Origin: Candidatus Omnitrophota bacterium
Lineage (GTDB): Bacteria > Omnitrophota > Gorgyraeia > B26-G9 > JBDRCZ01
Length of the DNA stretch: 64,000 nt
Reading direction: 5' to 3'
Assembly (NCBI GenBank): GCA_043821285.1
Contig: JBDRCZ010000017.1
Span: forward strand, 15,947 to 79,946
This document shows positions 4,202-59,935 of the stretch, one piece after another (position 1 is the stretch's first letter; every line of letters begins with the position of its first letter). The position numbers and the translations under genes were made by a program. The notes under the pieces were generated by a model. The model searched no databases. It saw nothing but the letters and a program-made list of their open reading frames with translations, and was not told the origin of the DNA.

Positions 4202-4257
4202 AAAAGATATACGAAAGATTTTTGACAGAACCAACTTATAAACAAGGGGTAGTCGTA

Positions 4258-28449: not shown

Positions 28450-28633
28450 ATCTCTCCCCCCTTATTTTTTGCTCCGCAAAAAATAGAGCAATTGAAAATA
28501 GATAATGGAACATAGAGAAATTTTCTATTGTGGTCTATTGTTCAATTTTCTATTTTCAAAACCCTTTTCATGACCTGCCACAATATTATCAGATCTTCGA
28601 CTTGTTAATCAGAAAATGCAACGCATTTTCTAT

Positions 28634-29508: not shown

Positions 29509-29810
29509 TCCCCCCTTTGTACATGGTTTATTAGATTTTAACAGGATTAGAGGTGATTGTCAAGGATATATCGTGAAAAAGTAAGAAAAATCGTATTGTG
29601 TATTGAGTATTGTGGTTAAGAAATCTATCCACGAATGGTACAAAAAGCAGCGTTAATGACGAATGACGAAATCAGAACATTAAAATAAAAAACTCAAAAA
29701 AAGAAAATTAAATTTTAGCCACGAAATACACGAATCGCACGAAAAAAGAAAAGAGAATAAAAAGAAAAATATTTAACCACGAAGATCACGAAGTTTTTTT
29801 GTGAGAATAA

Positions 29811-32820: not shown

Positions 32821-33140
32821 ATTACATATATGCTTTCATTCTCGTATTGAGTATCGCGTATTAATGTTTTAAATTCGAAATCCGAATATCTAAATGTTTA
32901 GAATTTGCCATTCGTCATTATAAGTGTTTTATTTTATCTATCTAGTTGATCCTGTCTAATTCGTTCTCGTATTGCGTTTTTTTATTGTCGTCTACTTGTT
33001 TTTATACTCAATACTCGATACACAATACACAATGCGTTGTTTAATCATTTCTCTCCGTGTTCTCTGCGGCTCTGTGTGATAAATTTTAGCTTTTATTTTC
33101 TGTCTTCTGAATTCTGATTTCTGTTTTCTGCTGTTAACTG

Positions 33141-36100
33141 TTAGATTGCTTGCTCTGCTATAAATATATTAGGTACTGTTATTTCTCCGGCACTTGGTAT
33201 ATCTTCAAGTAATGTGTCCGGTGCAAATACATTTTCATTAGCAGGATTGGCTCTTGTGGCTATATCTTTAGCGTTTATAACACGTTGTGAGCGTCTGTCC
33301 TTATGAGCACTAGTGTCATTCGTTTCCTTTTGTAATTTTGCAAGAAGAACCGGATTATCTTTTATTTCACGGTGATTTTTGACGTTGGGAAAAAAACCTG
33401 TTGTCAGTTTTCTTGCGGCGGTTAAATCATCAACAGTTTGAATAATCATTCCTAATTCACCATTTAAATCTTCGCTATGAACAACACCAGCTTCTAATCT
33501 TACCTGCATGCCTAATTCTGAAATCACTTCATTAACTTTGATTTCGATCGCTTTCAAAGTAGCGGCAATTTTTTCCGAAGTAATTATCCCATCATCTTCT
33601 CTATAAGCTCCTGCAAATTGATTATAAACATTGTTATTAATTGATAGAATTACATCATTTCCAACATTGTGGCCAAATACATCATTAATAACCTTAAATC
33701 CAAAATGCAATTGTGCAAATTGTGCATCTCCATTTAAGTCTGTTTCTCTGTAAAACTCTCTGTTGCCGCTTGCTCTTATGAAATCATTTATATTTATGGA
33801 TGTAGAACTAACTATATAATGTGCTGATAGTTTTATCAGTTGTACACGGTTATTTTCTCTTTTTATAACGAGGTAGAACTTATCAGGCCGTTCATGTACA
33901 ATACTGATTGAAACAGCAGATTTGCCGTCTAAAATGTTTTGAATGGTTTTGCCCAACTTATCTCTTTCTATTACCGGGTAAAACTTGTCTAAATCTTCTT
34001 TCGAAATACCCGCATCTATCATTTCCTGACGTATTCTTTCTCCTTCAACTCCTAATTGAAATTTTTTATCGTCAGCTATTTTAATCGGTGATTTTCTCTC
34101 TTCGCGCTCAGGATCTGGGCGTTCGGATAATCCTATTCCTACTAACTTGTTGGCATATTTAGTCCTGCGCTGGGTGTATTCCGCCTCATCTCTAGCAATT
34201 CTTAGTTGTTCCAATAGACTCATTTGGGAAATATTAGGTATATCACTTATTTTTACTGCTCCTACCGGGGCAAAGGGAACATAAACAGGAAAATAAATCT
34301 TACCATTAATATCAATGTCAAGACATTTAAGATTAGCGAGTATCTCGGATAGAACAGTGTTTTCATCCTCTTCTACATCTTTAGTGAACAGTATAAATGT
34401 TTCCTTAGAAGCCTTTTCTTCTTCTGGCGTTAAAAATACTGATTTTGTGACCGTAGTAATGTTTCTTTTTTTATTTTCTCTTAATTTTTCTATCAACGCA
34501 TCTCTGTTACTATCATTTATATTTTTTAGGATTGCAAAAACGTATTTTCCTTCAATCCGTTCTATGACCTTGCGTTGAATTTGTACGAGAAAGTGCTCAA
34601 TAACTTCTTTTGGCAACATAGGTGGTAACAAACCAACAACCTCATCACCACTAACATGATAAACTGTTCTACCTCTTTCTTCAATTTCTTTACGAGCTGC
34701 CTCAATTAATGTGTTAATTGCAAGTATATTCACATTTTCCCAGCCATATACATCATTTCTACCCCTTAGTTCGCTGATGTCAAAGAATATCACCCAAGCA
34801 TTGTCGTCGTGTCTACCTAAAAATACCACTGCTTCTTTTTCCCATTTTTGTGCATTTTCTGGATAGGCTTCATTAAGAAAGTTTCTTACGCGTGTTGTAT
34901 TATCAAATAAAGTGGTTAAATACATTATAAACTCTTGCAGTTCGTTATAGGGTTCGTCAGTATCTTTTCTACTTAAAAGAACATCTATCACCTTAGTAGC
35001 CGCGTCCCTAAATTGCTGATCATTAATATTTTGGTTAATAATTTTTCTCCACTTCTCACCTAAACGCTTTATTTCAGCCTTCAGAAACATTTCTATTGCT
35101 TCCTCATCTTCGCCTTGTTCTTTACACCTATCTACTTCTAATATTACTTTTTCTACATCTGCGCCCAACTCAAAAGCAAAAAATTCCCCATCTCGTTCCT
35201 GACTGGAATTTTCTCTTGGCAAAATGCTTGCCATACCTAAGCTAAATGCTGCGATTAAACCTGCGGTTCCTCCTCCCATCCCTGATTGAAGCATTGATGC
35301 TGCGGAAAATTCTGGTTGAGATGGGAAATAACCAAGTGCTCGCATTAATGTTCCAATAGATGCTGCTAAAAGCACGATGGATATTTTAGGTTTATTTCCA
35401 AACCATGCAACTAACCTCCTAATTAGCGTACCTAACCTGTTCTCATGGGAAGGACTTTTGTTTAATGCCCTCCAACCAGTTGGATGCATAAATGCTACAT
35501 TAGTTGCTTTGCGTCTACGATGAAGAAGTCCGCTTATATTTGCAGGAAATATTATTTTTCTGCTTATCCACTTTTTTACCTCATAAGCAATATATATTAA
35601 TGTTAAAATTATGCCCAAACCAGGTATTACCATACAATCGCTAATAAAATTATTCCACTGTTTAACACGAGCATAACCTTCTCTTACAGTAAAACTATCA
35701 ATAAAAAACTCTTCTCCCATCGGTGGCATGATACCAAACTTAGCAATAAAATCTGCCTGGTTTTTAAATGCTTCTGTTGTTTCTGGATTGATATCAAAAA
35801 AAGGAATAACTAATCGAGCAATGTTAAAAATCAACGTTACTGGGTTATGTTTTATAAGAAATTCCATTGGGTTTTTAGGCAAATTATCGACATGATGACT
35901 TAAACGCACTAATGTAACAGCGTATTCAAAAATTCCTCGCTTAGTAAAGAAATTTAATCCAATATTAGGATTACCCCATGTTCCATTCCATCTTGAACCA
36001 TAGACAATATCAAAATTGCTTTCACGGATAGGTGGATTATTTGTCATAAGAATTTGGTAAGTTTCGGGAGAAACTAATTTTATCAAAAATAGCGCTGGTC

Positions 36101-39100
36101 CAATATGTTCTGCTCCTTCAGTTCCATCTCTTCGCTCAATAAAATCGTCCAACATGCCCGCAGCTTTATATTCATTGTAAAGTTTAATTACGGCTGTATC
36201 GATTTCCTGAGCTCTTTTTCGTGCTGTTGATTCTATAAATGATCCCGTGTTTTCATCAATTTTTGATGCAAGTGGAGAGTTTTGAAATGTTTCAATTAGA
36301 TTATGGAATTCATTTAAAGCTATTTGTAATTCTCCATTATTTTCTTGTAATGATACAGGTTGTGGTAATTCATTAAGTTTTAAACTGTCAGCTGGTGTTG
36401 GCTGTACTAATCCACTTTTTCCAACTGGTTCTAAAGATACAATGTTTAATGGTGCAGCAATTCCGATTGGTGCTAATATGGTCTGTGATCCGATAGCGAG
36501 GATAGTGAGTAAAGGCAATACTACCTTACGTGCAAAAGAGAAGTTAACACTGTGTTTAAAACCCCAGCCAAAAATAGCTAATCCTATCAGTCCTATTGCC
36601 GCAATTACAGCACCTGGCAAACCAAAAAATAACCCTGCAAACCCAATTGCCATAATTAACCCATCGATTGAAAGTGCTGTGGTTCCATTAGGTAACCTAC
36701 GGCTGGAATTATTATCCGGCGCAGTAATCTCTACATTATCTCCATGATTAAACGTCTGTTCTAAGTCTTCTACGCTTCTGGGCAAGCCGTTAACTTTTAA
36801 CACCAACTCCCCAGACTGGAGCATTTTTTGTGTGGTTAGGATGGCTTTGCGATTACGATCATTATAATAAGAAATCTGTGAAGTAATAGTCTTAATAAAT
36901 AAATATGCCAGCAGATCATAGATATTTGTTGCGGGAATCTGTTCTGCTGATATCAGTTCTCTAATACCATCTTGTTGACTATTACTGGCTTCTTTAGTTA
37001 TTGTTAATTGGATTAATGCTTTTTGTTCTTCTTCTTGCAATTTTTGAGTTTGCTGAGTTATTTCATCCTCTAAAAGAGCTAATCCAGCCCTATGCTGCTC
37101 TAAGATATCTTTTTCAGGATCAAATTCCCCTTCAGCACAAATTATTAACCCATTTGGCATAATATAGTAGACTATATTGAGATAGCCATGTGTGCTTTTG
37201 CCGATCATCAGTGAGTTTTTATTATTTAGCCAACCTTCGTACCTTTCCTTATGAAGCATAATTTGTTGGCTATGTGTATAATATCTTAACGTTGCATTAA
37301 TAAAACCTTGCGCATCGGCTTCCTCTTCTTTACGATAAGTAAGTGTTGTTCCATGCCCAATGAAACCATTTTTATAATGTTCAGGTAAGTTCTTCCATTC
37401 TTTGTTCAAACCACTTTCAATCCTTTGATGCAGTGATTTGTTTCCAGGAGCCGGTATGACACGTTCTGGCTCTGATGCTAATATCTCAAAGCTCGTGAAG
37501 GCATAAAAAATATTTTCTCTATCTGTCGCAATACCCATGCGTGTTTGACCCAAATTATCAGTTACTACCTGCCAGGTTGTTAATCCTATTTCTCGAGTAT
37601 ATGCAATTAGCGCCAGTTCGTATATTTCTTCTGTTAATAGTCCATCATTTACCATCCGCACAAAAAGCTTAAGAAATTCGTTGCTGTGATATATAAACCC
37701 GACCAATATTACTAAAGAAATTTTTCTTAATCTTTCTGTTGCGTTCTCTTCCTTTTTGAGTTTACAATAGATTGCTTCTATTGCAGTAACACAATCACTT
37801 TTGTATTCTGAGCCTATTGGATCGTCTTCTAACAAGATATTCCCTAATATCTGAACCGCGTATTCTGTTCCAATATCACCTAAAAGGTTTTTAACAGCCC
37901 TTAGGCGTAAGTAAAGCGGGTTAGTTTTATCATTCAACGCATTTGTCACAAGTTTTTCTGCAGGTTCACCAATTCCTCTTATAATCTCCTCACCAAGCAA
38001 AAGTAAGTTGGTTAAGTTCATATTAATTATATATCTATTTGGTTGTTGAATTAATGTTCTCATTCGCTTAATACAAGATTCAATCACATGTGCTCCCAAT
38101 ATCTCTTTCCTGCCAATTTCAACTAAATAGTCCTTTAAAAGTTCTTTTCTTATGTTAGCAAGCTCATAAGCTGAATGAAAAAATAAAATTATTAAACTAT
38201 CAGTTATTTTATCAACCATTTGTTTAATAATATTGTTTTGGTTTTCTGCTCTGGGATTTATTTTTAATGCATTGGCAATTTCAGTTATAAACTGTCTATC
38301 TCTATCTGATAATTCATCCTGTTGAATTCTATTGTATAAGACGAATAAATATCTTATAAAATAATTGAGTACCTCAATAACAGTTCTAAGAAAATCTAGT
38401 TCAGTTTCGTTAAATACTTCTTTTTTTTCAAATTTTTCCTGTGTCATTTGCTCAAATATTTCTTTTATCAATATAACCACTCGTATTTCATTACGTTCTT
38501 TAAGTATGTTAATAAGTAAACGTCTTATCCTCAGGTCAGAAGATTGAAGCACGTATTCTCTTATGTGGGGAAATGCCCGCTCGACAATATTACCTAACAC
38601 CGAAGAGGCAATTGTAACACGTGTTCCGCGATATATTAATCCCTGTTCACTTAATTCTGTAACAGCAGATTGAAGATTATCTTCTGATTTTTTTGCAATC
38701 TCCGTCAAAATATCAATAATCACATCTTGTTTTTTTTCTCCATGATCAAGCAGGTGCCGGATAGCTTTTACGCCAAACCCTTTAACCAAAATATCTTTAA
38801 TATCAGATGTTATTTCACGATCTTCACTATGAGCTGATAAGGCATCTGTTAAAAGGTCCATTGCCGTTGCAATTGTATCTTCATCTCTATTAGCAAATTC
38901 ACCAAGTTCAGCCATATTATCAGTACGTGAAGCGCGATCTCTATACGTAGCTAACTTATTAATCACATCCTGTATGTAAGCTCTCGTTGTACTATTATAA
39001 CTATTTCTATTGCTAAAATGCTTTGTTGTATCTTCTCCCGGATTGCCCCAATCTTGTAAACTAGAAAAAGGTAACTTTAATCCACCTATTCCGGCAAATG

Positions 39101-39581
39101 TCAGTTTAGGGTTTATGCATTGCCAAAATAAATAAACTACCCCTGTTATCATTAACAATACATAAGGATTATTAAAATAACCATGAGGTATATTAGAAGA
39201 TAAGGAAATAATTATTTGCTTAAGTGGGTATAAGATTGTGCTTAGCGGTATTATATTGCTTATTACCAACACAGAAAATATTGCTAAAGCAGTTATACCG
39301 GCAATATAAGCTAATGTTCTGAATCTGTTTAAAAAGATTGGTGATTCTGTTGTAGGTTGTTTTGTTGTGATGGTAGCTGGGGCATGAGGTGTCATTTTTT
39401 CTCCTGAAATTATGAAAGCATGTTCCGTTACGGAATTAGCTATTTGCAATTCAGGGGCAAGGTGGGTGTGTAGACCTTTTAGATTGCCGCCGGCGGCCCA
39501 GGAAATGTCCAGGCATAAAAAGGCATTGATTAATATTATGGAAATTAGTCTAAAATAAATTTTACGTGTTAAATTATTCAT
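33141..39581 (-). CDS. giant-array member B (2146 aa): leader, HEAT-like repeats, multiple internal TM bundles, EQAI tail
   Basis: N-term MNNLTRKIYFRLISIILINAFLCLDISWAAGGNLKGLHTHLAPEL; PBS-lyase/HEAT-like LRLRAVKNLLGDIGTEYAV; TM clusters mid-protein; C-term ...NIFIAEQAI. Confidence 0.7.
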   Translation of the reverse strand: MNNLTRKIYFRLISIILINAFLCLDISWAAGGNLKGLHTHLAPELQIANSVTEHAFIISGEKMTPHAPATITTKQPTTESPIFLNRFRTLAYIAGITALAIFSVLVISNIIPLSTILYPLKQIIISLSSNIPHGYFNNPYVLLMITGVVYLFWQCINPKLTFAGIGGLKLPFSSLQDWGNPGEDTTKHFSNRNSYNSTTRAYIQDVINKLATYRDRASRTDNMAELGEFANRDEDTIATAMDLLTDALSAHSEDREITSDIKDILVKGFGVKAIRHLLDHGEKKQDVIIDILTEIAKKSEDNLQSAVTELSEQGLIYRGTRVTIASSVLGNIVERAFPHIREYVLQSSDLRIRRLLINILKERNEIRVVILIKEIFEQMTQEKFEKKEVFNETELDFLRTVIEVLNYFIRYLFVLYNRIQQDELSDRDRQFITEIANALKINPRAENQNNIIKQMVDKITDSLIILFFHSAYELANIRKELLKDYLVEIGRKEILGAHVIESCIKRMRTLIQQPNRYIINMNLTNLLLLGEEIIRGIGEPAEKLVTNALNDKTNPLYLRLRAVKNLLGDIGTEYAVQILGNILLEDDPIGSEYKSDCVTAIEAIYCKLKKEENATERLRKISLVILVGFIYHSNEFLKLFVRMVNDGLLTEEIYELALIAYTREIGLTTWQVVTDNLGQTRMGIATDRENIFYAFTSFEILASEPERVIPAPGNKSLHQRIESGLNKEWKNLPEHYKNGFIGHGTTLTYRKEEEADAQGFINATLRYYTHSQQIMLHKERYEGWLNNKNSLMIGKSTHGYLNIVYYIMPNGLIICAEGEFDPEKDILEQHRAGLALLEDEITQQTQKLQEEEQKALIQLTITKEASNSQQDGIRELISAEQIPATNIYDLLAYLFIKTITSQISYYNDRNRKAILTTQKMLQSGELVLKVNGLPRSVEDLEQTFNHGDNVEITAPDNNSSRRLPNGTTALSIDGLIMAIGFAGLFFGLPGAVIAAIGLIGLAIFGWGFKHSVNFSFARKVVLPLLTILAIGSQTILAPIGIAAPLNIVSLEPVGKSGLVQPTPADSLKLNELPQPVSLQENNGELQIALNEFHNLIETFQNSPLASKIDENTGSFIESTARKRAQEIDTAVIKLYNEYKAAGMLDDFIERRDGTEGAEHIGPALFLIKLVSPETYQILMTNNPPIRESNFDIVYGSRWNGTWGNPNIGLNFFTKRGIFEYAVTLVRLSHHVDNLPKNPMEFLIKHNPVTLIFNIARLVIPFFDINPETTEAFKNQADFIAKFGIMPPMGEEFFIDSFTVREGYARVKQWNNFISDCMVIPGLGIILTLIYIAYEVKKWISRKIIFPANISGLLHRRRKATNVAFMHPTGWRALNKSPSHENRLGTLIRRLVAWFGNKPKISIVLLAASIGTLMRALGYFPSQPEFSAASMLQSGMGGGTAGLIAAFSLGMASILPRENSSQERDGEFFAFELGADVEKVILEVDRCKEQGEDEEAIEMFLKAEIKRLGEKWRKIINQNINDQQFRDAATKVIDVLLSRKDTDEPYNELQEFIMYLTTLFDNTTRVRNFLNEAYPENAQKWEKEAVVFLGRHDDNAWVIFFDISELRGRNDVYGWENVNILAINTLIEAARKEIEERGRTVYHVSGDEVVGLLPPMLPKEVIEHFLVQIQRKVIERIEGKYVFAILKNINDSNRDALIEKLRENKKRNITTVTKSVFLTPEEEKASKETFILFTKDVEEDENTVLSEILANLKCLDIDINGKIYFPVYVPFAPVGAVKISDIPNISQMSLLEQLRIARDEAEYTQRRTKYANKLVGIGLSERPDPEREERKSPIKIADDKKFQLGVEGERIRQEMIDAGISKEDLDKFYPVIERDKLGKTIQNILDGKSAVSISIVHERPDKFYLVIKRENNRVQLIKLSAHYIVSSTSININDFIRASGNREFYRETDLNGDAQFAQLHFGFKVINDVFGHNVGNDVILSINNNVYNQFAGAYREDDGIITSEKIAATLKAIEIKVNEVISELGMQVRLEAGVVHSEDLNGELGMIIQTVDDLTAARKLTTGFFPNVKNHREIKDNPVLLAKLQKETNDTSAHKDRRSQRVINAKDIATRANPANENVFAPDTLLEDIPSAGEITVPNIFIAEQAI

Positions 39582-40421
39582 AAGTTAATAGCCTATCAGT
39601 TAATTCCAAATGTTCCGCCTATCAAACCGGCGGACAGGCAAATAATAAAATCCAAATGACAAATGAATCATTTAATATCTCAATCTAAAAATCAAAATGA
39701 TATATTAAAATTCAAATATTTTTCTCTTTGACAGGATTTACAGGATTAACATGATTTTTTATCCAGTTAATCCTGTCTATTTTCTTATTTTCTCTGTGAA
39801 CTTTGTGTTCTCTGTGGTTATAAATTTTTTTATTTTTTTTAATCGTAATACTCAATACATGCTACTCAATACGCATTACTTTTTATAGTGTGCTCTCTGT
39901 GGTTAAAATATTTTTTGTTTTTTTATCTACATAATCATCCGTATTCTACGCTCTCTTTTATATGCACTATTTTCATTACAATCATACATATTGTAACCGC
40001 TAATAATTACAATCTGTTAAATATATTTATAACAATTTTAATATATACAAGTAAAGTATACCATATTTTTCTGATTTTTCAAGGATTTTGCTAAAAAAAT
40101 ATAGAAAATAACAGATTAAAAGATTCAGGTGATCACGGTTTTAAAACAGTATCAAGGCATTATTTATAACTTATTTATTTATAATATATTATAAAATAAT
40201 TATCGAATATGCCTACATGTTAATTATTCGTGAAATTCGTGTAATTTGTTGTTTAAAAATAAGCAGTTAAAGTTTTTCTTTGTGTGATAAATTTTATTTT
40301 TTACCGCAGAGAAAATCTAAAAGAAATCTCGTTCACAGATGTATGTAAGTTACATCCACTTTCTATTCTTAGTGCGTTACGTAAACGGTAAACTGCCTGC
40401 CTCCCGTTAGGGAGGTAAACT

Positions 40422-40446
40422 AAAAAATTGCCATAGGCAATTTTTT
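40422..40446. terminator. palindromic A6-TTGCC-ATA-GGCAA-T6 terminator (bidirectional in form) at 3' end of member C, overlapping its stop codon
   Basis: AAAAAATTGCCATAGGCAATTTTTT; second hairpin CCTCCCGTTAGGGAGG at 40400-40415. Confidence 0.5.
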
Positions 40447-43400
40447 AAATTGCCCGTTCAATTTCAAACAAATCTGCTATCTCTCTCTTCTCCAGTTTTG
40501 TATCTGATCCATTTATGCCTACCCTATAGCCAGTGTGTCTTTCTTGGGGAGCAACTATTAGAGAATAAAGAGCGTGTAGTAACAGCATATCAGAATCAGA
40601 AATATGAGGGTCTATATTTTTTGCTTCTAATATTGATTCATCATCGCTTATTATTTCTTGTATAATTGTTTTTACTATATCTCTATCTTCAGCTCTGCAT
40701 TTTTCATGAATTGCATTCAGACATTGTTCAAAAAATGGTCTGAGCATCATAAGCTGAACATTATCTTCTTGTGTATATGCATTGGCAACTGCTTTTGTAA
40801 CTGTTTCTAAAACAGTTTGCCGGTAATCTGGTCTTACCGTATAGATATTATCAAAAAAGATAAAAGTCCCGGCTGCGGCTTGTGGCATTATTGTCTTGTT
40901 TAGTATCTCATTAATAACATTTCGAGGAAAATATACTAAAATACTTAATAATTTATCTATTGTAGTATTACTTGGGGTTAAACCTTGCTGCTGGATCAAC
41001 TCTTGATATTTTCTTCCTATGATTCTATGCATAGATTCAAGACTTCTTCTATTTGCATTTATCATTAAATTATTTCCTTTAACTGCTGTAACTAAGTCCG
41101 TTAATTCGCTTCGTATCATTTCTCGTTCTTTCTCAAATACATCCGTATCTTCGTTCCTCTGAGATATAAATAACCCTAAAAATTCAAGTTCTAATGCTTT
41201 TTTAAAGGCATCTTCCGAAGTAAATGCGTTTAATCTAACAGTAATATTTTCTAACAACATTAGCTCAAAGCTGGTACCTTGACGAAAAATATGTTTTAGA
41301 AATTTTTCTGCATTAGTAAATTCGGGTGAAAAGATGATTTCTCCACTGACACCATCTACTGTTTTCTCCATCACTTCATTTATCAAATTACCTACTGAAT
41401 CTAAGTTGTGAAACTCGTTTAATCTATTTTCATCTTGTATAACAGCTCTTAAATAAACCTCCATTCTTAAAAGGTAATCAGCCAAAAAAACACCATCAAT
41501 TGCAAAACGTATATTTTCATTCGTATCTTGAGTTCTTGCAGTCAAGGCTTGATAAAGAAAATCATCTATATCGGTCAACATTCTATAAAAGATTTCCATT
41601 GCTGTTTCCTTATCCTGTTTTAGAGCAAGTTCGAGGACATTATTAACATTTGAAAAATCTCGTGAAATATACTCCTTAATTACATCACATAACGCATTGA
41701 ACAGTGGTTTTTTATCACGACGGTAAATAGCAAAACTTAGCCTAATAAATGCTGCTAATATCTCATGGGAATTAAATCCTGAATTTATTAAATAACTTTG
41801 CTCCTTTTCTATATAGATTGGTATAATTTTAGAAACGTCATATCCCGCAATAACTGTGTAAGCAACTGCAGCAAAAATAAGATTATGTGTTTCTGCATCA
41901 TGTTTAGGAATGTTTATTCGTTGTAAGATTTCTCCTAATACTTCTCCTGCCTCAGTAGTTCTCTCCTCTTTTCCTTCAATCTGCGCTTTTATTTTATTAG
42001 TAAAAAATTCAAAAACAAAATCAGGTTCTGCCTTAAGATACGCTTCTATTGTTTCCCAATCTGCTGCTAATAAATTACGCAGTTTTTGGATTTTATCTTG
42101 AACCACGATTAAGTTATTTCGTAGATTGCTTATTTTTTTCTGATTTTTTCTCGTTTGTTTTTGCTCTTTGTTTATGGTTTGCTGAATAGTTCTTTCATTG
42201 CTTTGGCGACGATTAAGTGCCTGCGTCCTTGTAATAACTCCTTCTAAGAGGATTGTTACTTCAGAGAGTTTTTCTCTACGCGCTTTTACTGCCGGGGGCA
42301 TATCTAAAAGTAGAGGTTCCCTTGTTGTCACTGGAGCCTGCCATGCTGGAAGTTCTTCAGATGCTACTTGCATAGCAGCAGCGCCTTGAAGGACCTGAGG
42401 ATATAATGAATGTTTTTGCATTGGGTCTTCAACTAACATAAGCTCACAACTTTGAGGCGGTTTGAGAGCATTAATTCTATTTTGGATAACTACTCCCAAT
42501 CCCCAAGCCCATTCTGCTTGACTTTTATATAAATCAACTAAGGCTTCAATATCCTCACTTTCGTTTATAATTGCGGTTATTCTCTCTACCAGAGGAGCCC
42601 GGCTGTTTCTGTTAGGATAGGTATTAAGCATTTGATATAATTCAGGTATATTACTTAAATCATTATAACCGAGTAATCTTTTTCTCAGTACCTCTGCTAT
42701 TACCCCCCTTATTTGCTTACATCCGTAGGTATATTTATTTATAGAATTATCTGTAAGTAAACGAAGCAGGTTTTCGATATCTAAGGAAAACACTTGCCTG
42801 ATAATACCGAAAATAATATATATTTCTACTTCAGAGTGAATTTTTTTACTAAGTAAATTAGCTAATGCAGCAAGTGCCTCGCCCCCCCATTTACTAACCA
42901 TCTCCTGAGCAATAGCTTGAGCTTGTGTTTTGTCATTATTTTCTGCTTGCTGACGTTTAAATCTATCGGAAATTGCGGTTAATCGTTCAATGCCATCTTC
43001 AATCGAAGAAACAGTTAGGTGTATTTCTGATATTTTTCCTTGAGAAGCAATACTATTACTTAATTGTGCGGCTGCTGCTTGCTTTGTTTTCTGGGGTAAC
43101 CTTGGATTTCGTGACCACTCTGAAAGCAAGCGATCATTTACTTCTGCTAATCTTTTTGCAGTGCTTAACGCCTTAATTCTATACCAAAGATAATTATTCC
43201 AGTATTCATCGTCCCATTCTTGGCTTAGATACACATCAACTAAGGCAACAATATCTTGATTATTTTTTATTATATGTTTCATCCTTCTTCTTGCCAGATC
43301 TTTAATGTCTTCGTTCGGACATAATGTTTCATTATTAATAACATAATATAATGCAGAAATACTTGTTACGTTTCGAGGAATGCTAACAGTTTTTATGATA

Positions 43401-46400
43401 ATTATGCTTTTAATCATACCTCTGGTAACTTCAGCTCCTTTAGTTTCTTGCTGATTCATCGCAGTATATAAATAAAATATTTCTGTAACAGACATTGAGT
43501 TAAGACAATTACCAAGTGCCGACATAGTTATTTCTATTGCTTCTTCATTAAGAAGATTCGTATCAATTTGCTCAGCAAATTGTTTAATAATTTCTAAAAA
43601 CTCATCTTTATCCTTTGTGTTATACATTTCTGTTATAATATTTTTAACTTCTTGAGGAGCGGATGCAATAAAGGCTTGTATTTCTTCGGGTGTCTGATAA
43701 TAATCAGCCAACTCTTTCTCCAGCTTTTCTATTTGTGACGCAATTGTCGTATCTAGTTCTGGTTTATTAATTCGCAGCCACTCTATTATTCTTTTTCTTA
43801 CTGTCCGATCTTGGATGCCAATCAATAATCCTAGTACATGCACTACCTCGTTTTCTAAACACATGTATTGTGACAAGATGTCGTTAAGTTCCGTATTCGC
43901 TGCATTGCTAAAGAATAGGTATATAGTACCAGCAATATGTTTTTGTATGCCCGTAAGTCTAAGGATTTTTTCACTCAAAATATTTCTTATGCTCGAACCC
44001 CAGCTTCTTTCTAAATATAATTCTACTGCTGTCTTTAAATTATCACATTCATTAACCAGTTCTCTTATTCTCATCCTTAGCAGTGCCCGGGTTCCTTCAT
44101 GGTACTCTCTATCATTGAGCAAATCTTGCAGTGGTTCGATACTAGCAATGCCTTGATATTCAGCAAGGCGCTGTTTGATCGCTTCTATTAATTGACTACT
44201 ATTGTCCCCATGATTTAACCTACGCAATAGTTCCTCTAAGGTGAGAGTTTTTATGGGGTCAAAATCTGCTAGTAGTTCTGCAAAAGTTACTTGATTATCA
44301 GAAGGCGCTGCAACTTCTCTTGTCGGGGGGGCATCCCTGTTGGTGTCGGCTCTTTGATTAGCGTTTCGCCATGCTGCTCTTAAGGCACGTGTATCTGACT
44401 GTGATGGTGGCTCTGGAAAATGTACCACCTGAGCTGCATTCGACGGAGCTGTTGTTCGTACAAACCTATCTGGAGGGGATAGTGATAGATCGAAAGCAGC
44501 TGCTAGTTTTTCTAATGAGTTTAGAGTCAAAGGGTTATTGTTTCCTGATGGAGGAACTGTATCTTTTGGTAAAGCAACTTCTGCTGTGTCAGTCCCTTCC
44601 TTTTCTGGTTGTCGCAAGTCACCTGATTGTAATGGTACGGTGTATGCTTGAGGGTTATTTTCTTTTTCCCTTTCCCTTTTCCTTTTCTTTCTTGCAATAG
44701 GAGGACTATCTGCTCTATATTGTTTACGTGCTTTCCTTTTCATTAATACAACTTTATCTTCTTCTTCATCATCATCATATTGGTCACTATCATCTATTGC
44801 ATTTATTAACTCCTCTATTATGAGCATTAAAGCAATCCGTATATTTTCTTCTGATAATTCACCCGAACCCTCTTGCATCAATTGCTCAATTTCTTCCTCT
44901 GACAAAGTTAAATCGTTTATAACACCAATGAGCTGTTCAATGATTTGACCATTCTCGTGTGCGCTTTCAATTATATTATCTATAGCATCTTTTAACGCTT
45001 CATGATATGTATCTTCATCAAGTAGTAAATAAGTTTTTACTAAAAAACTAAGATCTATTTCTAAAGCACTATTTCTCGTTGATCTTACGCCGGTACTACC
45101 AAGCAAGCATAGTAAACTAAATCCCCAAGCCAACCCCTTCCAAATAAAAAATGCCAGTGCATCTGGTCTTGCGGCAACAAAGTGTACTACTGGATATAAT
45201 AATCCTTCATGTCGTGCAAGAGAATTTATGATTGTAAATTCGATGTAGTCGATAATAATGAGCATAGCTGATTTAGCACCAGTAACCGCCTTTTTAACTA
45301 ATTCCCAAACATTTGGTATAAATTGTATCTGCGGTTGTATATATAAAGGAAAGGTCATTATTAAGGAAAGACCTAATATAGCGTGTATTGGTAAATGCCC
45401 TAAGTTTACACTAACCGGGATGCCCGTGATATTACTGATTACCTCTAATATAAAAGGTGCAATCAATAATAAAAAGAGGCCATTTATTAATGGATGGGAA
45501 TTCAGGGTAACACTCTTACCAGCATTACTTTCTTGATAAAATTCTCTTACCGCTCTATTTGTTTTTATTAAAGCACGTAAATCAATAATGATATTTCCAT
45601 TTCTATCTTTACGAAGGTCATGTTTATTTTCCTTGTCAGATAAAAATATCTTATCATCTTCTTTCACAATTTTATATTCCACGTTACCAATCCAAATAAT
45701 ATCATTTTCCCTGAAAGTTACTTCTTTCCTTAAAATATCAATGATTAATTCCTTGCTGTTTGCTTCGTTACGCAGAAGAATAGTATTACCAGCTATTGCA
45801 TATTTTGTATTATCTATCATTCTGTCTTGATGCCACCATGCTATTCTGAGTTTGTAACCATCACCCTTTCCCTCAGTTTTTATTTTTTTTAGACCATCTG
45901 TTGGGAAAAATTCTAACCGTTCTCGTAAACGCTGGATTTTAGTATTGTATTGTCTTATATCTAAAATTCGCTTGTTATGAATGTTCTGAATTACAGCTAA
46001 TAACTCGTTGTCCTTAATACTTGCTAATAATGCGCCATAAAAGGCCAGACCTAAGCTATCTACTCTTAAAACTATTCTTTCTATTTCTGTGTGTTTGTTT
46101 TTGTTAAATAGAGTTGTTAAATAATTAGCCAATATCAGTACAAATTCCCCGCCCCACCACTTTATAACCTCAACCAATTGACCAAGAGACTGCGGTGTAA
46201 TATTTTGATGTTCATTCAGGAGATTTTCAATAATTTGTAATACTGCAGAAACTGAATATACACCAAATTGTTCGGCCAAAGCTTTGATTATTGCCAATCT
46301 TTGCGTTTCATCAAAATTATTAAGATTAGCTTCTTTTTCTTTCATCATCTTAATATAATTTTCGGCTGAATCCCAATCTTGAGTAGACTTATTAGTATCC

Positions 46401-47536
46401 CAATACTGTACTGGTTTGCGATACACTGCTTTTGCTGCTACTAATATATTTTTTTCTTTCTCTGTAAGTGCGGTGTCATCATTTGTCCATATCCTAATCA
46501 TTCCGTGTCTTGGTGCTGTTATATAAAATGAAATTTTTGACGCAAGAAACTCTTCCCATTCTTCTGGAGAAGGCACAGTTGATAAATCAGCACGTAAACG
46601 TATAAAACGGTTATAGTTTTTATTTTCGTTATTAATTATGTCTGCCGGAAGCAGCCGCCGGCCAACATGAATTTCTATATTAGAGTTTTCTGGTATTGGT
46701 TGGGTATAACGGCTTCGATCAGGGGTTGAAACATTCCAGTAGTTTTGTGTTGATATACCAAATCTCAAAGATTCGTTATCTATTTTTATGCTCTCGGGAG
46801 CAAAAAACATCATCATAATTGCATGCGCAGGTAAACGTATTGCATCAATCCAGTAGTGAATTCCTTTACGATAACTATACTCAAGGATAATTTTAATACC
46901 ACGTTCAAACAGAACTTTTAATCCGGGTAAAAAGGCAATATTATTAAATACGCTGTTGGTATTTAATCTAAAGACTTCCATATCCCTGGGGACAGTAAGC
47001 ACTATTCGCGGAGACGCACCTTTAATATCTATTTTTCCATAAGTAGTAATTTCACTTTGCAAATCACGCGCCAACCCAAGCAAACTTAGAAAGTCAATTT
47101 CTTTTAGAACCGGGGGTATTCTTTCAACCGTCTCATCATCTGGACAAGGTATTTCTGGAATTTCCCTAATATTTAATTGATTGTTTTTTTTAGAAATTAC
47201 ATAAGAACGTTGTTTACCAGCTGCGCCTGTTGTTACAAACAATACTATCGAACCATCATTCGCAAATCTTTTCTCGCATGCATCAAACTCAAACTTATCT
47301 TTAATATAACTTACGCCAACATGTCCTTCTGCCCAAGTATATGCATCACTTATTTTTTTGTAAAGCATAATATTTTCTGCAAATAGAGGGTCATTTACTT
47401 CCAAAGGCGGGGCAAGATGGGTATGTAGACCTTTTAGATTGCCGCCGGCGGCCCATGAGATGTCTAAGCATAGAAAGGCATTGATTAATATTATGGAAAT
47501 TAGTCTAAAACAAATTGTACGTGTTAAATTATTCAT
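40445..47536 (-). CDS. giant-array member C (2363 aa): leader, TM bundle, basic/acidic low-complexity region, C-terminal module paralogous to member F, EIERAI tail
   Basis: N-term MNNLTRTICFRLISIILINAFLCLDISWAAGGNLKGLHTHLAPPL; RKKRKREREKE basic stretch; ~450-aa alignment with F; C-term ...DLFEIERAI. Confidence 0.7.
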   Translation of the reverse strand: MNNLTRTICFRLISIILINAFLCLDISWAAGGNLKGLHTHLAPPLEVNDPLFAENIMLYKKISDAYTWAEGHVGVSYIKDKFEFDACEKRFANDGSIVLFVTTGAAGKQRSYVISKKNNQLNIREIPEIPCPDDETVERIPPVLKEIDFLSLLGLARDLQSEITTYGKIDIKGASPRIVLTVPRDMEVFRLNTNSVFNNIAFLPGLKVLFERGIKIILEYSYRKGIHYWIDAIRLPAHAIMMMFFAPESIKIDNESLRFGISTQNYWNVSTPDRSRYTQPIPENSNIEIHVGRRLLPADIINNENKNYNRFIRLRADLSTVPSPEEWEEFLASKISFYITAPRHGMIRIWTNDDTALTEKEKNILVAAKAVYRKPVQYWDTNKSTQDWDSAENYIKMMKEKEANLNNFDETQRLAIIKALAEQFGVYSVSAVLQIIENLLNEHQNITPQSLGQLVEVIKWWGGEFVLILANYLTTLFNKNKHTEIERIVLRVDSLGLAFYGALLASIKDNELLAVIQNIHNKRILDIRQYNTKIQRLRERLEFFPTDGLKKIKTEGKGDGYKLRIAWWHQDRMIDNTKYAIAGNTILLRNEANSKELIIDILRKEVTFRENDIIWIGNVEYKIVKEDDKIFLSDKENKHDLRKDRNGNIIIDLRALIKTNRAVREFYQESNAGKSVTLNSHPLINGLFLLLIAPFILEVISNITGIPVSVNLGHLPIHAILGLSLIMTFPLYIQPQIQFIPNVWELVKKAVTGAKSAMLIIIDYIEFTIINSLARHEGLLYPVVHFVAARPDALAFFIWKGLAWGFSLLCLLGSTGVRSTRNSALEIDLSFLVKTYLLLDEDTYHEALKDAIDNIIESAHENGQIIEQLIGVINDLTLSEEEIEQLMQEGSGELSEENIRIALMLIIEELINAIDDSDQYDDDEEEDKVVLMKRKARKQYRADSPPIARKKRKREREKENNPQAYTVPLQSGDLRQPEKEGTDTAEVALPKDTVPPSGNNNPLTLNSLEKLAAAFDLSLSPPDRFVRTTAPSNAAQVVHFPEPPSQSDTRALRAAWRNANQRADTNRDAPPTREVAAPSDNQVTFAELLADFDPIKTLTLEELLRRLNHGDNSSQLIEAIKQRLAEYQGIASIEPLQDLLNDREYHEGTRALLRMRIRELVNECDNLKTAVELYLERSWGSSIRNILSEKILRLTGIQKHIAGTIYLFFSNAANTELNDILSQYMCLENEVVHVLGLLIGIQDRTVRKRIIEWLRINKPELDTTIASQIEKLEKELADYYQTPEEIQAFIASAPQEVKNIITEMYNTKDKDEFLEIIKQFAEQIDTNLLNEEAIEITMSALGNCLNSMSVTEIFYLYTAMNQQETKGAEVTRGMIKSIIIIKTVSIPRNVTSISALYYVINNETLCPNEDIKDLARRRMKHIIKNNQDIVALVDVYLSQEWDDEYWNNYLWYRIKALSTAKRLAEVNDRLLSEWSRNPRLPQKTKQAAAAQLSNSIASQGKISEIHLTVSSIEDGIERLTAISDRFKRQQAENNDKTQAQAIAQEMVSKWGGEALAALANLLSKKIHSEVEIYIIFGIIRQVFSLDIENLLRLLTDNSINKYTYGCKQIRGVIAEVLRKRLLGYNDLSNIPELYQMLNTYPNRNSRAPLVERITAIINESEDIEALVDLYKSQAEWAWGLGVVIQNRINALKPPQSCELMLVEDPMQKHSLYPQVLQGAAAMQVASEELPAWQAPVTTREPLLLDMPPAVKARREKLSEVTILLEGVITRTQALNRRQSNERTIQQTINKEQKQTRKNQKKISNLRNNLIVVQDKIQKLRNLLAADWETIEAYLKAEPDFVFEFFTNKIKAQIEGKEERTTEAGEVLGEILQRINIPKHDAETHNLIFAAVAYTVIAGYDVSKIIPIYIEKEQSYLINSGFNSHEILAAFIRLSFAIYRRDKKPLFNALCDVIKEYISRDFSNVNNVLELALKQDKETAMEIFYRMLTDIDDFLYQALTARTQDTNENIRFAIDGVFLADYLLRMEVYLRAVIQDENRLNEFHNLDSVGNLINEVMEKTVDGVSGEIIFSPEFTNAEKFLKHIFRQGTSFELMLLENITVRLNAFTSEDAFKKALELEFLGLFISQRNEDTDVFEKEREMIRSELTDLVTAVKGNNLMINANRRSLESMHRIIGRKYQELIQQQGLTPSNTTIDKLLSILVYFPRNVINEILNKTIMPQAAAGTFIFFDNIYTVRPDYRQTVLETVTKAVANAYTQEDNVQLMMLRPFFEQCLNAIHEKCRAEDRDIVKTIIQEIISDDESILEAKNIDPHISDSDMLLLHALYSLIVAPQERHTGYRVGINGSDTKLEKREIADLFEIERAI

Positions 47537-47855
47537 ATGTTAATACCCTGTTAGTTAATTCCAAATGTTCTAATTCAAGATTTAAAAATTCCAAGATTCC
47601 AGATTCTAAAATTATAAAATTCCCCGCTACAAGGTCGAAGATCCGCCATCGTATTAGTGAAGAACGCTGGCGAACAGGCAAATTCTCTAACCTTCGGCAA
47701 GTAAAACGTTTTGAATCGTTAAATCTTAAAATATTCAAATTTTGGAATTGTTTGTTTTATTCTTCTGTCTTCTATTCTCTACCTTCTGTTTTCTGCTTTC
47801 AATCAGCTGTATCAGTAAACGGTAAACTGCCTGCCTTCCATTAGGGAGGTAAACT

Positions 47856-47879
47856 AAAAAATTGCCGCAGCAATTTTTT
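47856..47879. terminator. palindromic terminator at 3' end of member D
   Basis: AAAAAATTGCCGCAGCAATTTTTT; adjacent CCTTCCATTAGGGAGG. Confidence 0.5.
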
Positions 47880-55231: not shown

Positions 55232-55287
55232 TTCTATCATTTAAAACATATAGTAGACAGCAAACTGTACACTGTAAACGGTAAACT

Positions 55288-59036: not shown

Positions 59037-59935
59037 AATAAATATCTCCAGTTATTTAATTTTAAATGTCCCGCCTATCAAACCGGCGACAGGCAAATGA
59101 ATCATTAAATAATTCAATCTTTAAAATTTATTTATGTAATTTGTGTGATTTGTTGTTAATAAAATAAGTACTTGAAATCTTTCTTTGTGTGCTCCGTGTC
59201 TCTGTGTGACAAATCTAATATTTTTGTTTCGCTTGTCCGCCGTGCTCTGTTTGGCGGGTCATTCTGGTTTCGTTATTCGTTATTAAATTATCCTGTCTAT
59301 CATCCACAATGATTGGCGGATCTTCAATTTTTTATATTTTCTCTGTGAACTTTGCGAGCTCTGTGGTGATAAATTTTTTATTTTTTTTTACCGCGATACT
59401 CAATACTCATTGCTTTTTATAGTGTGCGCTCTGTGATGATAATTTTTGTTTTGTTTTTTTAGCCACAATGCTCAATACACAATACCCGATACTTAATCAT
59501 ATTACTTTTCATAATGCCTTGTTATAAATAAATTTATAACATCTTTTAAATAGTTTTATAAGTATACCATATAATTACGCAATTTTCAAGGGTTTGGGGA
59601 AATTTTTTTTGATTTTGTGATTTCTATGCTTATTGTTTTAACTATTTGGTATTAAAAAAGATATGGCATAGAAAATTAACAACAGCATTATTTAGGCAAG
59701 AATTGATTATATTTTTATTAAAGAAATAAATTGTAAGAGAAAATAATTATTACGATTAGATTTTATTGATTCTAAAATTTTAAATAAATTTTAACTTTAT
59801 TTTTCACCACAGAAAACACTGAGCCCACAAAGAAAAACTTGATACAAATCATACAAATATTTACATGCATAGCCTTCTTCCGTATAATCTGATTCTGCCT
59901 GCCTCCGGTAGGACGGTAAACAGTAAACGGTTAAC

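Follow-up and report, generated by a model that had tools for sequence, protein, structure and literature searches.

Heptamer Repeats in the Spacers of a Giant-Gene Row of an Uncultured Omnitrophota Bacterium and a Putative Duplicated Promoter and Leader Unit

Introduction

In an uncultured Omnitrophota bacterium, the DNA spacers that separate a row of giant genes carry short 7-base tandem repeats. What are they? Arrays of heptamers have been known from the intergenic DNA of bacteria for decades, but no function has been assigned to them. The present locus offers a compact natural comparison: the same repeat words are seen next to a start codon, behind a stop codon or far inside a long leader, as single arrays and as inverted pairs, and in diverged paralogous copies of a whole unit. 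An earlier note on this DNA had described the spacers as duplicated regulatory modules and the repeats as iteron-type protein binding sites and/or slipped-strand contingency control. Here, these claims are followed up across the window, i.e., the whole stretch of 64 kb that was analyzed (Table 1). The genes downstream of the spacers are 6–7 kb long and encode giant proteins with a signal-peptide-like N-terminus.

Table 1. Positions of spacers, repeats and signals, counted from the first letter of the window.
Feature	Positions	Strand	Details
B spacer	39582-40444	-	Whole intergenic unit, gene C stop to gene B ATG; from ORF list, sequence and homology to E spacer
E spacer	59037-59958	-	922 bp; paralogue of the 863-bp B spacer
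A spacer	32821-33140	-	Short; without the promoter common to B and E
Putative sigma-70 promoter, B spacer	40055-40082	-	TTGAAA-N16-TGgTATACT; motif kept in E spacer
Putative promoter, E spacer	59561-59589	-	TTGAAA-N16/17-TGgTATACT motif; position homologous to B spacer
A-spacer heptads	33001-33035	-	5 units
A-spacer inverted heptad array	32844-32861	-	24 nt before gene A ATG; absent from the earlier note
B-spacer heptads	39846-39880	-	Degenerate, 5 units; GTATTGN on sense, CAATACN on + strand
E-spacer heptads	59393-59413	-	3 units
E-spacer heptads, second array	59465-59499	-	5 units
guaA-dnaE spacer	7332-7521	+	Inverted heptad pair
guaA-side array	7332-7362	+	GTATTGC x4, directly 3' of guaA stop
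dnaE-side array	7476-7521	+	CAATACT x6, ends 8 nt before dnaE ATG
H-NOX upstream array	29593-29612	-	CAATACN, 3 units, ~30 nt upstream of the -35 of the H-NOX-gene promoter
Box ii, distal copy, B spacer	39895-39926	-	A-run, then TTTTAACCACAGAG; family D5
Box ii, proximal copy, B spacer	39790-39840	-	A8-T-A7, then TTTATAACCACAGAG; family D5
Third, diverged box ii with inverse-type arm (CTCTGCGG)	40278-40311	-	5' of promoter; family D16
Box ii copies, E spacer	59338-59389, 59429-59460, 59200-59225	-	
Box ii, A spacer	33051-33095	-	
Box iii hairpin, B spacer	39730-39780	-	GACAGGATTAAC ... GTTAATCCTGTC; -18.5 kcal/mol, z -4.8
Box iii, E spacer	59290-59300	-	
Box iii, A spacer	32949-32959	-	
Conserved GC hairpin, B spacer	39615-39639	-	GCCTGT-CCGCC..GGCGG, 35-60 nt before ATG; family D20
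Intrinsic terminator of gene C	40420-40447	-	13-bp stem and U run, z -3.2; stop codon within 5' arm
GTTTAC heptads around hairpin CCTCCC-TAAC-GGGAGG (3' module)	40381-40419	-	
TTCTG run, A spacer	33097-33130	-	
TTCTGNN run, C spacer	47746-47802	-	Family D6
TTCTGNN run, D spacer	53700-53752	-	Interrupted by IS element

Heptamer Repeats in the Window

First, the window was scanned for RATAC heptads with the pattern ATACNNNATACNNNATAC at no more than one mismatch, which gave 17 matches against 0.34 expected. Eight RATAC arrays were located in five intergenic regions, two of which lie outside the giant-gene array. The tandem CAATAC(T/A) runs described before, including the inverted pair between guaA and dnaE and the array upstream of the H-NOX gene, were recovered. 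Indeed, all four box types of the earlier note were found where it had placed them, far above chance frequency and in intergenic DNA only, the single exception being a one-mismatch RATAC match at 19299. Second, the GTTTAC heptad pattern GTAAACNGTAAAC gave 8 matches (0.41 expected), TTCTGNN likewise 8 (0.11 expected; A, C and D spacers only), and the CTCTGTG..ATAAATTTTTT box, here box ii, 4 (0.04 expected; two each in the B and E spacers). Box iii, ATCCTGTCTAT, was present in four copies in the window, in the A (one mismatch), B, D and E spacers, always in spacers and in a single orientation. GTAAAC heptads also occurred at 3731, and a single GTAAAC stood beside a GC hairpin in the guaA-dnaE spacer. 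RATAC heptads, GTAAAC heptads and the CCACRGA box are not specific to the giant genes, being present in unrelated intergenic regions as well.

The integrity of the arrays bears on slipped-strand contingency, by which changes in heptad copy number would act as an on/off switch for each giant gene. The paralogous spacers do vary in copy number, as had been claimed, although many other indels distinguish the B and E spacers too, among them one of 15 nt, which is not a multiple of 7. None of the spacer arrays contained more than 2.3 identical units in succession (longest tracts of 11–16 nt, i.e., 1.6–2.3 units; 12 nt of perfect periodicity in the B-spacer array), and slippage is therefore unlikely today. 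Four perfect units were found only at dnaE, an essential gene. The spacer arrays are outside any reading frame, and none separates a -35 from a -10. Giant proteins with a signal-peptide-like N-terminus belong to a class that is often phase-variable, and repeats in a 5' UTR can tune expression, as a passage in PMC4679880 cites for the AGAT repeats of Moraxella uspA2. Taken together, on/off switching by these arrays is very improbable, and this part of the earlier note was not upheld.

Mismatches were distributed unevenly over the seven heptad positions (6, 8, 3, 0, 5, 1 and 15) and concentrated in the linker position. In the A spacer, the TTCTG core was perfect in five units whose final two bases all differed. 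Because mismatches cluster in the linker and the TTCTG core is perfect, a dedicated DNA- or RNA-binding protein is possible; such core/linker variation fits sequence-specific recognition better than neutral decay. Regarding structure, the two guaA-dnaE arrays paired as a long-range stem in the predicted fold (z -2.6). The inverted arrays of the A spacer also paired in the predicted fold, but this fold was not significant compared to shuffles (z -1.25).

Comparison of the B and E Spacers

From stop codon to ATG, the two spacers aligned end to end as paralogues. The portion from promoter to ATG, with 70% nucleotide identity, was the best-conserved part of the duplicated junction. It exceeded the distal spacer and the coding DNA on both sides: identity was 0.65 for the leader peptide region, 0.56 and 0.43 for the C/F coding DNA alongside, and 0.45 for the bodies of genes B and E, with a shuffled background of about 0.46. 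The boxes ranked among the best-conserved blocks. Both spacers share a sigma-70-type promoter motif with an extended -10; the evidence for it is conservation between just these two paralogues, and promoter-like matches in AT-rich spacer DNA overall were not above chance. Thus, whole-length alignment, a common promoter motif and the elevated promoter-to-ATG identity bore out the claim of duplicated regulatory modules. The spacers are homologous, each being a paralogous copy of a single intergenic unit; the overall explanation favored here, a duplicated promoter and leader unit that carries ordinary heptamer repeats, has a probability of roughly 0.55.

The putative promoter would yield an A-rich 5' leader of about 470–520 nt in B and E. 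The heptads and boxes of both spacers lie downstream and not upstream of it, and would be part of the leader RNA if the promoter is used; the arrays are located about 170–240 nt 3' of the promoter and 170–440 nt 5' of the ATG. For the block of box ii and heptads, no fold was predicted in B or E (z -0.05 and +0.55). An Rfam search with gathering and E-value thresholds returned tRNA only and no family matching the spacers.

This arrangement also bears on operator arrays on DNA, where a dedicated transcription factor would bind heptads and CACRRAG units cooperatively and co-regulate the giant genes. Each heptad type indeed combines a conserved core with a variable linker, the boxes are well conserved between B and E, and the H-NOX upstream array stands just 5' of a -35 (TTGACA-N17-TAAAAT). 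However, a contiguous period of 7 or 9 bp puts neighbouring sites on different helix faces, and the B/E arrays lie 3' of the only conserved promoter. In addition, like arrays flank the housekeeping genes guaA and dnaE and are present in many phyla. Among the window ORFs, Pfam scans revealed no dedicated regulator beside the gene array; the only regulator-like matches were an ArsR-type HTH (1594-3228) and, in the tail of gene F, a penicillinase-repressor domain. Operator arrays are considered improbable.

For the duplicated promoter and leader unit, the following order is proposed: an upstream terminator module, an AT-rich stretch, the sigma-70-type promoter with extended -10, the A-rich leader and the ATG with a common 55-aa signal/leader peptide. 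The unit would have been duplicated along with the ends of the flanking giant genes. Heptads and box ii would populate intergenic DNA generally in this Omnitrophota genome, the supposed 7-bp iterons being ordinary heptanucleotide simple-sequence repeats, and the spacers would have inherited both by duplication. Transcription would start at the shared promoter, and the B/E arrays would be single-stranded leader RNA (GUAUUGN, A-run-CCACAGAG). Any action of the repeats would then be on RNA, where they would offer a single-strand-binding factor a multi-site platform or a spacer, while the inverted arrays of gene A and dnaE would pair across the spacer and occlude the stretch just before the start codon. 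A functional leader with its repeats would account for co-expression of a private giant-protein family in this uncultured bacterium.

Relatives of the 55-aa leader were not found in genome contigs or metagenome contigs, and a search of 5.8 billion proteins returned it only in the same NCBI MAG (locus tags ABH952_). Exact look-ups of guaA, P0001, P0005 and P0006 gave no match on record. Similar small ORFs are present in both spacers on either strand (+ strand, 45 and 37 aa; - strand, 47 and 23 aa). They were rejected, as they translate T-rich/A-rich repeat DNA, have no counterpart in the A spacer, and owe their similarity to nucleotide conservation.

Box ii and Dispersed Inverted Doublets

Box ii had been stated to occur once or twice per spacer, which held for three of five spacers; it was not found in the C and D spacers. 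Diverged copies were located at 33070, 40278 and 59200 (family D16). The proximal copy of the B spacer contains three CACRRAG units with a 9-nt period and is 87% identical to the E copy. The related word W5-RCCACRGA gave 7 matches in the window against 0.26 expected, 5 of them in unrelated intergenic regions, and dispersed CCACRGA inverted doublets form strong hairpins (5098-5216, z -6.2; 4104-4206, z -4.9). Box ii is probably a single arm of a short repeat element that has copies scattered over the genome.

The same data are relevant to mobile-element footprints. Under this explanation, box ii would be a REPIN/MITE-like non-autonomous element that landed in an ancestral spacer, as the inverted heptad pairs perhaps did too, and mobilisation may have been by the RAYT-like transposase of the window. 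Besides the excess of W5-RCCACRGA and the dispersed hairpins, this would be in line with a Y1 transposase (27148-27954) that matches the REP-associated family over the full profile with 75.7 bits, and with similar CCACAGA(G/T) doublets in Ignavibacteria (L078) and Prolixibacteraceae (L106). However, the transposase match is below the curated cut-off of 80, and the gene is flanked by other palindromes, its inverted repeats including no CCACRGA doublet. For most REPs, a 20–40-bp palindrome with a GTAG or CGTC tag on one side is reported (PMC3733652), whereas the box ii arms end in ..CNGTGG(C/T)TAAAA, with neither tag. Moreover, the word varies by copy (CACAGAG, CACGGAT, CACGAA) and provides no constant recognition sequence, and the B/E copies are single arms with neither partner nor hairpin. 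A MITE bounded by heptad inverted repeats was rejected, as the interiors of the guaA-dnaE and A-spacer pairs are unrelated. The mobile-element explanation has a low probability.

Hairpins, Terminators and TTCTG Runs

Box iii had been interpreted as a -35-like element, TAGACAGGAT. This is plausible for gene A (10/12 matches) and weakly so for gene B (9/12); in the D and E spacers, no acceptable -10 follows downstream. In the B spacer, the TAGACAGGAT box forms one arm of a strong hairpin. The B copy of the conserved GC hairpin was 91% identical to the E copy (59071-59094), with variants in the C and D spacers. The terminator module of gene C also occurs 3' of genes D, E and F (family D3), and the 3' module with GTTTAC heptads after gene C is 89% identical to the copy after gene D (family D9).

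TTCTGNN runs had been placed just 3' of the terminator of the preceding gene. This applies to the C and D spacers and fails for the A spacer, where the upstream gene B is without a terminator. The IS element at 53753-55231 has 22-bp inverted ends, an 8-bp target duplication (TTCTATCA) and a transposase matching DDE_5. Its insertion into a TTCTG run was confirmed, the target duplication placing it at the end of the run.

Heptamer Repeats in Other Genomes

Stretches of (CAATACT)3 or longer were found at least 120 times in other genomes, mostly of Bacteroidota and Ignavibacteria, and in four Omnitrophota MAGs. In viral contigs, the one collection in which permuted words of the same composition were run as a control, three permuted heptamers gave 26, 17 and 20 stretches compared to 9 for CAATACT. 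Thus, CAATACT was rejected as a special cross-phylum word, permuted heptamers being at least as frequent in that collection. The arrays of other genomes are polar: of 122 cases, 46 have a gene boundary directly at the 3' end of the array (CAATACT strand), compared to 11 for the other end. A strand bias near start codons was rejected as clean support for an RNA function, since it follows the polarity of the array itself, whose 3' end meets a gene start in some cases and, in others, the end of an oppositely oriented gene. Inverted partner arrays were detected at 3 of 120 loci with a strict pattern.

The frequency of permuted words would suit a further explanation, in which the repeats have no function and are neutral slippage products, the identity of the spacers resulting from recent gene conversion between paralogues. 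The arrays are decayed, and the block of box ii and heptads is without predicted structure. At the 5' ends of genes B and C (family D1) and in the 3' modules of genes C and D, 89%-identity blocks abut unrelated sequence, and this mosaic suggests recombination; high spacer identity may reflect recent gene conversion instead of selection. Neutral origin is at odds with the non-uniform variation of core and linker, with the polarity in other genomes and with the better conservation of the promoter-to-ATG portion relative to the distal spacer. An absence of function is considered unlikely, if still worth reckoning with. If the repeats are neutral, the locus cautions against naming such arrays iterons or phase-variation switches by sequence alone.

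Discussion

Iterons of plasmids and chromosomes are 17–22 bp long, keep helical register, lie at an origin beside a rep gene and bind the Rep initiator. The spacer repeats resemble them as non-coding direct repeats of variable copy number. In contrast to iterons, the units in the window are contiguous 7-mers or 9-nt CACRRAG units, are dispersed and cross-phylum, and would be leader RNA if the promoter is used. In Pfam scans that covered 26 of the 29 window ORFs of at least 150 aa, no Rep initiator was matched, nor did the window show any feature of an origin; in its GC skew and gene orientation, it is terminus-like and not origin-like. DnaA boxes were also rejected: TTAGCCACA and TTAACCACA match TTATNCACA at 8 of 9 positions, with the mismatch always at position 4, in a terminus-like region. 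The reading as iteron-type sites was not supported. The repeats do not qualify as plasmid-style iterons, nor do they form an obvious on/off switch, and they belong to a class common in many bacteria; any function that they may have is only proposed.

As to such a function, ring-shaped proteins are known to bind RNA leaders: TRAP binds (G/U)AG repeats and HutP binds UAG at a 7-nt period. By analogy, an oligomeric single-strand-binding regulator might load at the GUAUUG-N, CAGAA-NN and GUUUAC-N arrays and CACRRAG triplets, which lie in the leaders and 3' ends of what would be a lineage-specific family of giant secreted proteins; it would work like TRAP or HutP, or in the manner of a processivity factor for 6–7-kb genes. 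This proposal is quite doubtful. If true, the heptamer arrays that stand flush with gene boundaries in Bacteroidota, Ignavibacteria, Omnitrophota and cyanobacteria would make up a hitherto overlooked class of elements for post-transcriptional control. As in TRAP and HutP leaders, short conserved cores alternate with non-conserved linkers in 3–11 repeats within a 5' leader, a likeness by analogy only. Unlike in those systems, neither a TRAP/HutP homologue nor a terminator/antiterminator pair was identified here.

Two other systems share traits with the locus. As at the AGAT contingency locus of uspA2, short tandem repeats lie between promoter and start codon of genes with a signal-peptide-like N-terminus, but contingency tracts of that type are long and perfect, whereas about two identical adjacent units at most occur here. 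As in REP/REPIN and RAYT systems (PMC3116915, PMC3733652), intergenic hairpin doublets are dispersed and a RAYT-like gene is present in the window, but the arms here are built of variable sub-repeats and the spacer copies are single and untagged.

The closest relatives are the heptanucleotide simple-sequence repeats, a class that includes the STRR heptamers of heterocystous cyanobacteria. Intergenic heptamer arrays of this kind have already been described, e.g., the TAACTGA repeats of Beggiatoaceae, Cyanobacteria and Bacteroidetes (MacGregor 2015, PMC4679880). The same article, in summarising Mrazek 2007, states that most prokaryotic genomes have heptamers as the most frequent unit of their longer (5–11 nt) simple repeats. 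The heptads of the window agree with the LSSR/STRR/TAACTGA type: 7-nt units stand head to tail at least three times, the same word recurs in intergenic DNA at several unlinked loci within 64 kb, and the arrays exceed chance and are present in other genomes. Thus, the locus is a further case of this known class, within a duplicated promoter/leader module, and if functional it would provide a testable model for many similar arrays in Bacteroidota and cyanobacteria. As in the known cases, units typically number 2–6 copies, one word is found at many loci, different heptamers are often mixed, and arrays often end a few nt from a start codon, here those of dnaE and gene A. Unlike in the known cases, the words are CAATACN, TTCTGNN and GTAAACN and the phylum is Omnitrophota; many arrays are degenerate, and several form inverted pairs bracketing a spacer or lie deep in a long leader.

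Six Large Genes with Shared Protein Ends

The stretch from 29.8 to 64 kb of the window (G+C content of about 36%) is occupied by six large minus-strand genes, A to F (Table). Only two features are common to the encoded proteins, i.e., the N-terminal ~55 residues (M..LINAFLCLDISWAAGGNLKGLHTHLAPPL), which have the look of a signal peptide, and the C-terminal residues, ..EQAI in all but the gene C protein, which has ..ERAI. The protein bodies are unrelated apart from one region of C and one of F (36% identity across ~590 residues); transketolase domains occur in D, and a methyltransferase domain in E. Among 5.8 billion proteins, the 55-residue leader peptide had no match outside this MAG, and only further genes of the same MAG were found. 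At least nine giant proteins of the MAG (995–3205 aa; P0001 and P0003–P0007 in the window) possess it. An ..E(Q/R)AI-type tail is present on most full-length members, one has ..MEAI, and transketolase, methyltransferase and site-2 protease domains occur among the bodies.

Coordinates of the features in the window.
Feature	Position	Strand	Remarks
Gene A	29833-32820	-	
Gene B	33141-39581	-	
Gene C	40445-47536	-	
Gene D	47878-53553	-	
Gene E	55311-59036	-	
Gene F	59959 to past window end	-	
Putative promoter, B spacer	40082..40055	-	TTGAAA-N16/17-TGgTATACT
Putative promoter, E spacer	59589..59561	-	TTGAAA-N16/17-TGgTATACT
Terminators of C, D, E, F	40420-40462, 47850-47896, 55283-55329, 59931-59977	-	begin at stop codon
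Inverted RATAC array	32844-32861		just 5' of gene A ATG
Array at guaA			GTATTGC x4, 10 nt past stop
Array at dnaE			CAATACT x6, ends 8 nt before ATG
GGAATYTT octamers, C and D leaders	47572-47623, 53570-53600		between GC hairpin and ATG
IS element	53753-55231		22-bp inverted ends, 8-bp target duplication TTCTATCA, DDE_5 transposase
IS transposase frame	53922-55210		stops at TAG 54984-54986
Antisense ORFs	39751-39888, 59309-59422	+	45 aa, 37 aa
W5-RCCACRGA, unrelated intergenic regions	1515, 4114, 5108, 5194, 16417		
Dispersed palindromes	1419-1527, 3830-3900, 4104-4206, 5098-5216, 16417-16510, 28470-28566		
Y1 (IS200-like) transposase	27148-27954	-	268 aa
Inverted repeat in its last codons	27150-27206		perfect, 27 nt, 3-nt loop
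11-mer TTTGACAGAAC	4221-4231, 5279-5289, 26995-27005	+, +, -	each just 5' of a gene

Heptad Repeats and Boxes in the Spacers

The repeat elements that the earlier note had listed for the spacers, i.e., the intergenic DNA 5' of these genes, were all recovered, each in its place or a few bases off. The ATAC heptads (CAATACN on the plus strand, GTATTGN on the coding strand) gave 17 matches with 0.34 expected by chance, TTCTGNN (CAGAANN on the coding strand) 8 with 0.11, and box ii, a CTCTGTG-type box with CCACRGA/CACRRAG sub-repeats, 4 with 0.04. Box iii (ATCCTGTCTAT) was matched four times (0.92 expected), always in a spacer and in a single orientation. An additional heptad type, GTAAACN (8 matches, 0.41 expected), and an additional inverted RATAC array were detected, and period 7 was the dominant strict tandem periodicity in the non-coding segments of the window. 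The C and D spacers lack box ii, and the long spacers of B and E lack TTCTG runs. As for the IS element, which had been placed inside a TTCTG run, it did insert at the end of such a run. Its transposase gene may be interrupted; about 245 nt of the element remain beyond the in-frame TAG. The C and D leaders contain GGAATYTT octamers, and at an Ignavibacteria locus (L089) GGAATTT heptamer arrays adjoin a CAATACT array.

B and E Spacers as Paralogous Modules

The spacers of B (863 bp) and E (922 bp), read on the coding strand, could be aligned over their full length. Each begins with the upstream gene's terminator (12-13-bp stem and U run, with the stop codon in the 5' arm), followed by GTTTAC heptads surrounding a small GC hairpin, an inverse-type CTCTGNGG arm and an A-run, about 200 nt of AT-rich DNA, and a putative sigma-70-type promoter with extended -10 at homologous positions. 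The rest, ~470 nt in B and ~520 nt in E, is a leader conserved between the two. It contains two higher-order units in tandem, each made of an A-run, the sequence TTTAT(A/C)ACCACAGAG, in which CACRRAG is repeated up to three times every 9 nt, and a GTATTGN heptad array; box iii is also present, as is a GC hairpin (GCCTGT-CGCC..GGCG) 35-60 nt 5' of the ATG. Spacers A, C and D measure only 270-340 nt, not counting the IS, start with a CAGAANN run and are without this promoter.

Nucleotide identity between the B and E junctions peaked in the part from promoter to ATG (0.70), with 0.65 for the leader-peptide codons and 0.55 for the distal spacer from stop to promoter. The B/E gene bodies reached 0.45, C/F homologous coding DNA 0.56 and the last 200 codons of C/F 0.43; the shuffled background was about 0.46. 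The two spacers are thus paralogous promoter/leader modules, for which the proposed label of duplicated regulatory module is fair.

Judged from the sequence, transcription would start at the shared promoter. Provided that this promoter is used, the repeats would belong to a transcribed leader and not to upstream operator DNA, because they lie 3' of it. The 146-nt block of box ii and heptads is predicted to be unstructured in both spacers (z -0.05 and +0.55), and box iii of the B spacer forms one arm of a predicted hairpin (11-bp stem, z -4.8). Rfam contained no family for these repeats or leader elements. Two similar small hydrophobic ORFs (..IFSVNF..SVVINF..LNTH.FL) run antisense over box ii and the heptads, and the 15-nt indel between them preserves the frame; the two probably result incidentally from conserved T-rich sequence.

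Iteron, Contingency and -35 Readings

Iteron-type binding sites, as suggested earlier, are not supported: the arrays fail on unit length, spacing and context, Pfam scans, which covered 26 of the 29 ORFs of at least 150 aa in the window, found no Rep initiator, and both GC skew and gene orientation resemble those of a terminus rather than an origin. Gene orientation switches at ~25.4 kb, from plus-strand genes only on the left to minus-strand genes only on the right, and GC skew changes there from positive to negative, as at a replication terminus.

Phase variation by slipped-strand mispairing, also suggested, is likewise not supported. The arrays are degenerate, with at most 2.3 identical consecutive units in the spacers, and only the dnaE array has four. 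With so few identical units, and with the 15-nt indel being one of many indels between the B and E arrays, switching by slippage at the present day appears unlikely. The reading of box iii as a -35 element (TAGACA) is plausible in part: a usable -10 follows it in the A spacer (10/12 matches) and weakly in B (9/12), and none in D and E.

Repeats outside the Gene Array

The repeats are not private to the giant-gene array. The guaA-dnaE spacer is bracketed by RATAC arrays, and a further one lies 5' of the promoter of an H-NOX gene. Box ii is a single arm of a dispersed element. W5-RCCACRGA had seven matches (0.26 expected), five of them in unrelated intergenic regions; there, arms of 2-3 CACNGAN sub-repeats are arranged as inverted doublets, predicted to form strong hairpins (z -6.2 at 5098-5216, z -4.9 at 4104-4206), whereas the box ii copies of the B and E spacers are partnerless.

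Dispersed intergenic palindromes have arms of 2-3 tandem sub-repeats (CACNGAT, or AAAATAGA at 28470-28566), A-runs at their flanks and strong predicted folds (z -4 to -6), and most lie just 5' of promoter-like TTGACA motifs. A Y1 transposase matched the model of REP-associated tyrosine transposases along its entire length (75.7 bits, cut-off 80); the inverted repeat in its last codons could reflect truncation, rearrangement or an assembly join. The 11-mer TTTGACAGAAC, present in three exact copies, may be an extended -35 or a shared operator; at one mismatch its count was not above chance.

Hints of Function

Conservation of the leader between B and E speaks for a role of some kind. Mismatches in the RATAC heptads (6, 8, 3, 0, 5, 1 and 15 by position) were concentrated in linker positions, with a like, weaker trend in other genomes (57, 35, 54, 40, 26, 23 and 60). 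The TTCTG core is intact in five A-spacer units, and the last two bases all differ. This pattern of core and linker is only suggestive of some function, the units being non-independent. The inverted guaA-dnaE arrays are predicted to form a ~30-bp stem ending a few bases 5' of the start codon (z -2.6), and a like pairing ~20 nt 5' of the gene A ATG was not significant (z -1.25). In other genomes, CAATACT arrays are polar: in 46 of the 122 arrays listed, the 3' end lay no more than 30 nt from a gene boundary, compared with 11 of 122 for the 5' end; the 46 boundaries comprised 24 forward gene starts and 22 ends of reverse genes. At the RNA level, the repeats might act as a single-stranded protein platform or pair with an inverted array.

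At the terminators of C to F, the codons of the final Ala-Ile (GCAATT/C) are able to pair with the terminator 5' arm as an alternative, which is the predicted minimum-energy fold for the E copy; the F copy has a compensatory stem change (AGTTGCC/GGCAACT). The alternative pairing could couple translation to termination.

Heptamer Arrays in Other Genomes

These short tandem repeats occur genome-wide and across phyla. An exact scan for (CAATACT)2CAATAC returned at least 120 stretches in species-representative genomes. Among the matches listed, most were from Bacteroidota and Ignavibacteria, and the remainder included at least four Omnitrophota MAGs, an Auribacterota MAG, candidate-phyla-radiation bacteria and cyanobacteria; the listed arrays were usually intergenic and often beside other heptamer arrays. 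CCACAGA(G/T) doublets resembling box ii were found on one Ignavibacteria and one Prolixibacteraceae contig. In an Omnitrophota MAG (L057, JAPLLU010000050.1, 4214-4290), (CAATACT)4 followed by (CCGTCGA)4 lies within a uvrA-like open reading frame; thus, heptamer arrays can occupy coding sequence.

CAATACT as a special word was rejected, since in viral contigs, to which this control was confined, three permuted heptamers of the same seven bases were found in 26, 17 and 20 stretches versus 9 for CAATACT. The finding gains most of its value from the unusual gene family served by these repeats and leaders. MacGregor (PMC4679880) described arrays of TAACTGA, along with assemblages of mixed heptamers, in Beggiatoaceae, cyanobacteria and Bacteroidetes. 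As relayed there, Mrazek (2007) reported that in most genomes heptamers are the most abundant unit among the longer prokaryotic simple repeats (5-11 nt), an abundance put down to polymerase slippage. With permuted heptamers more frequent than CAATACT in viral contigs, the repeats here are this generic phenomenon already described, and the finding is genuine but rather ordinary, an example of a class that is known but poorly understood.
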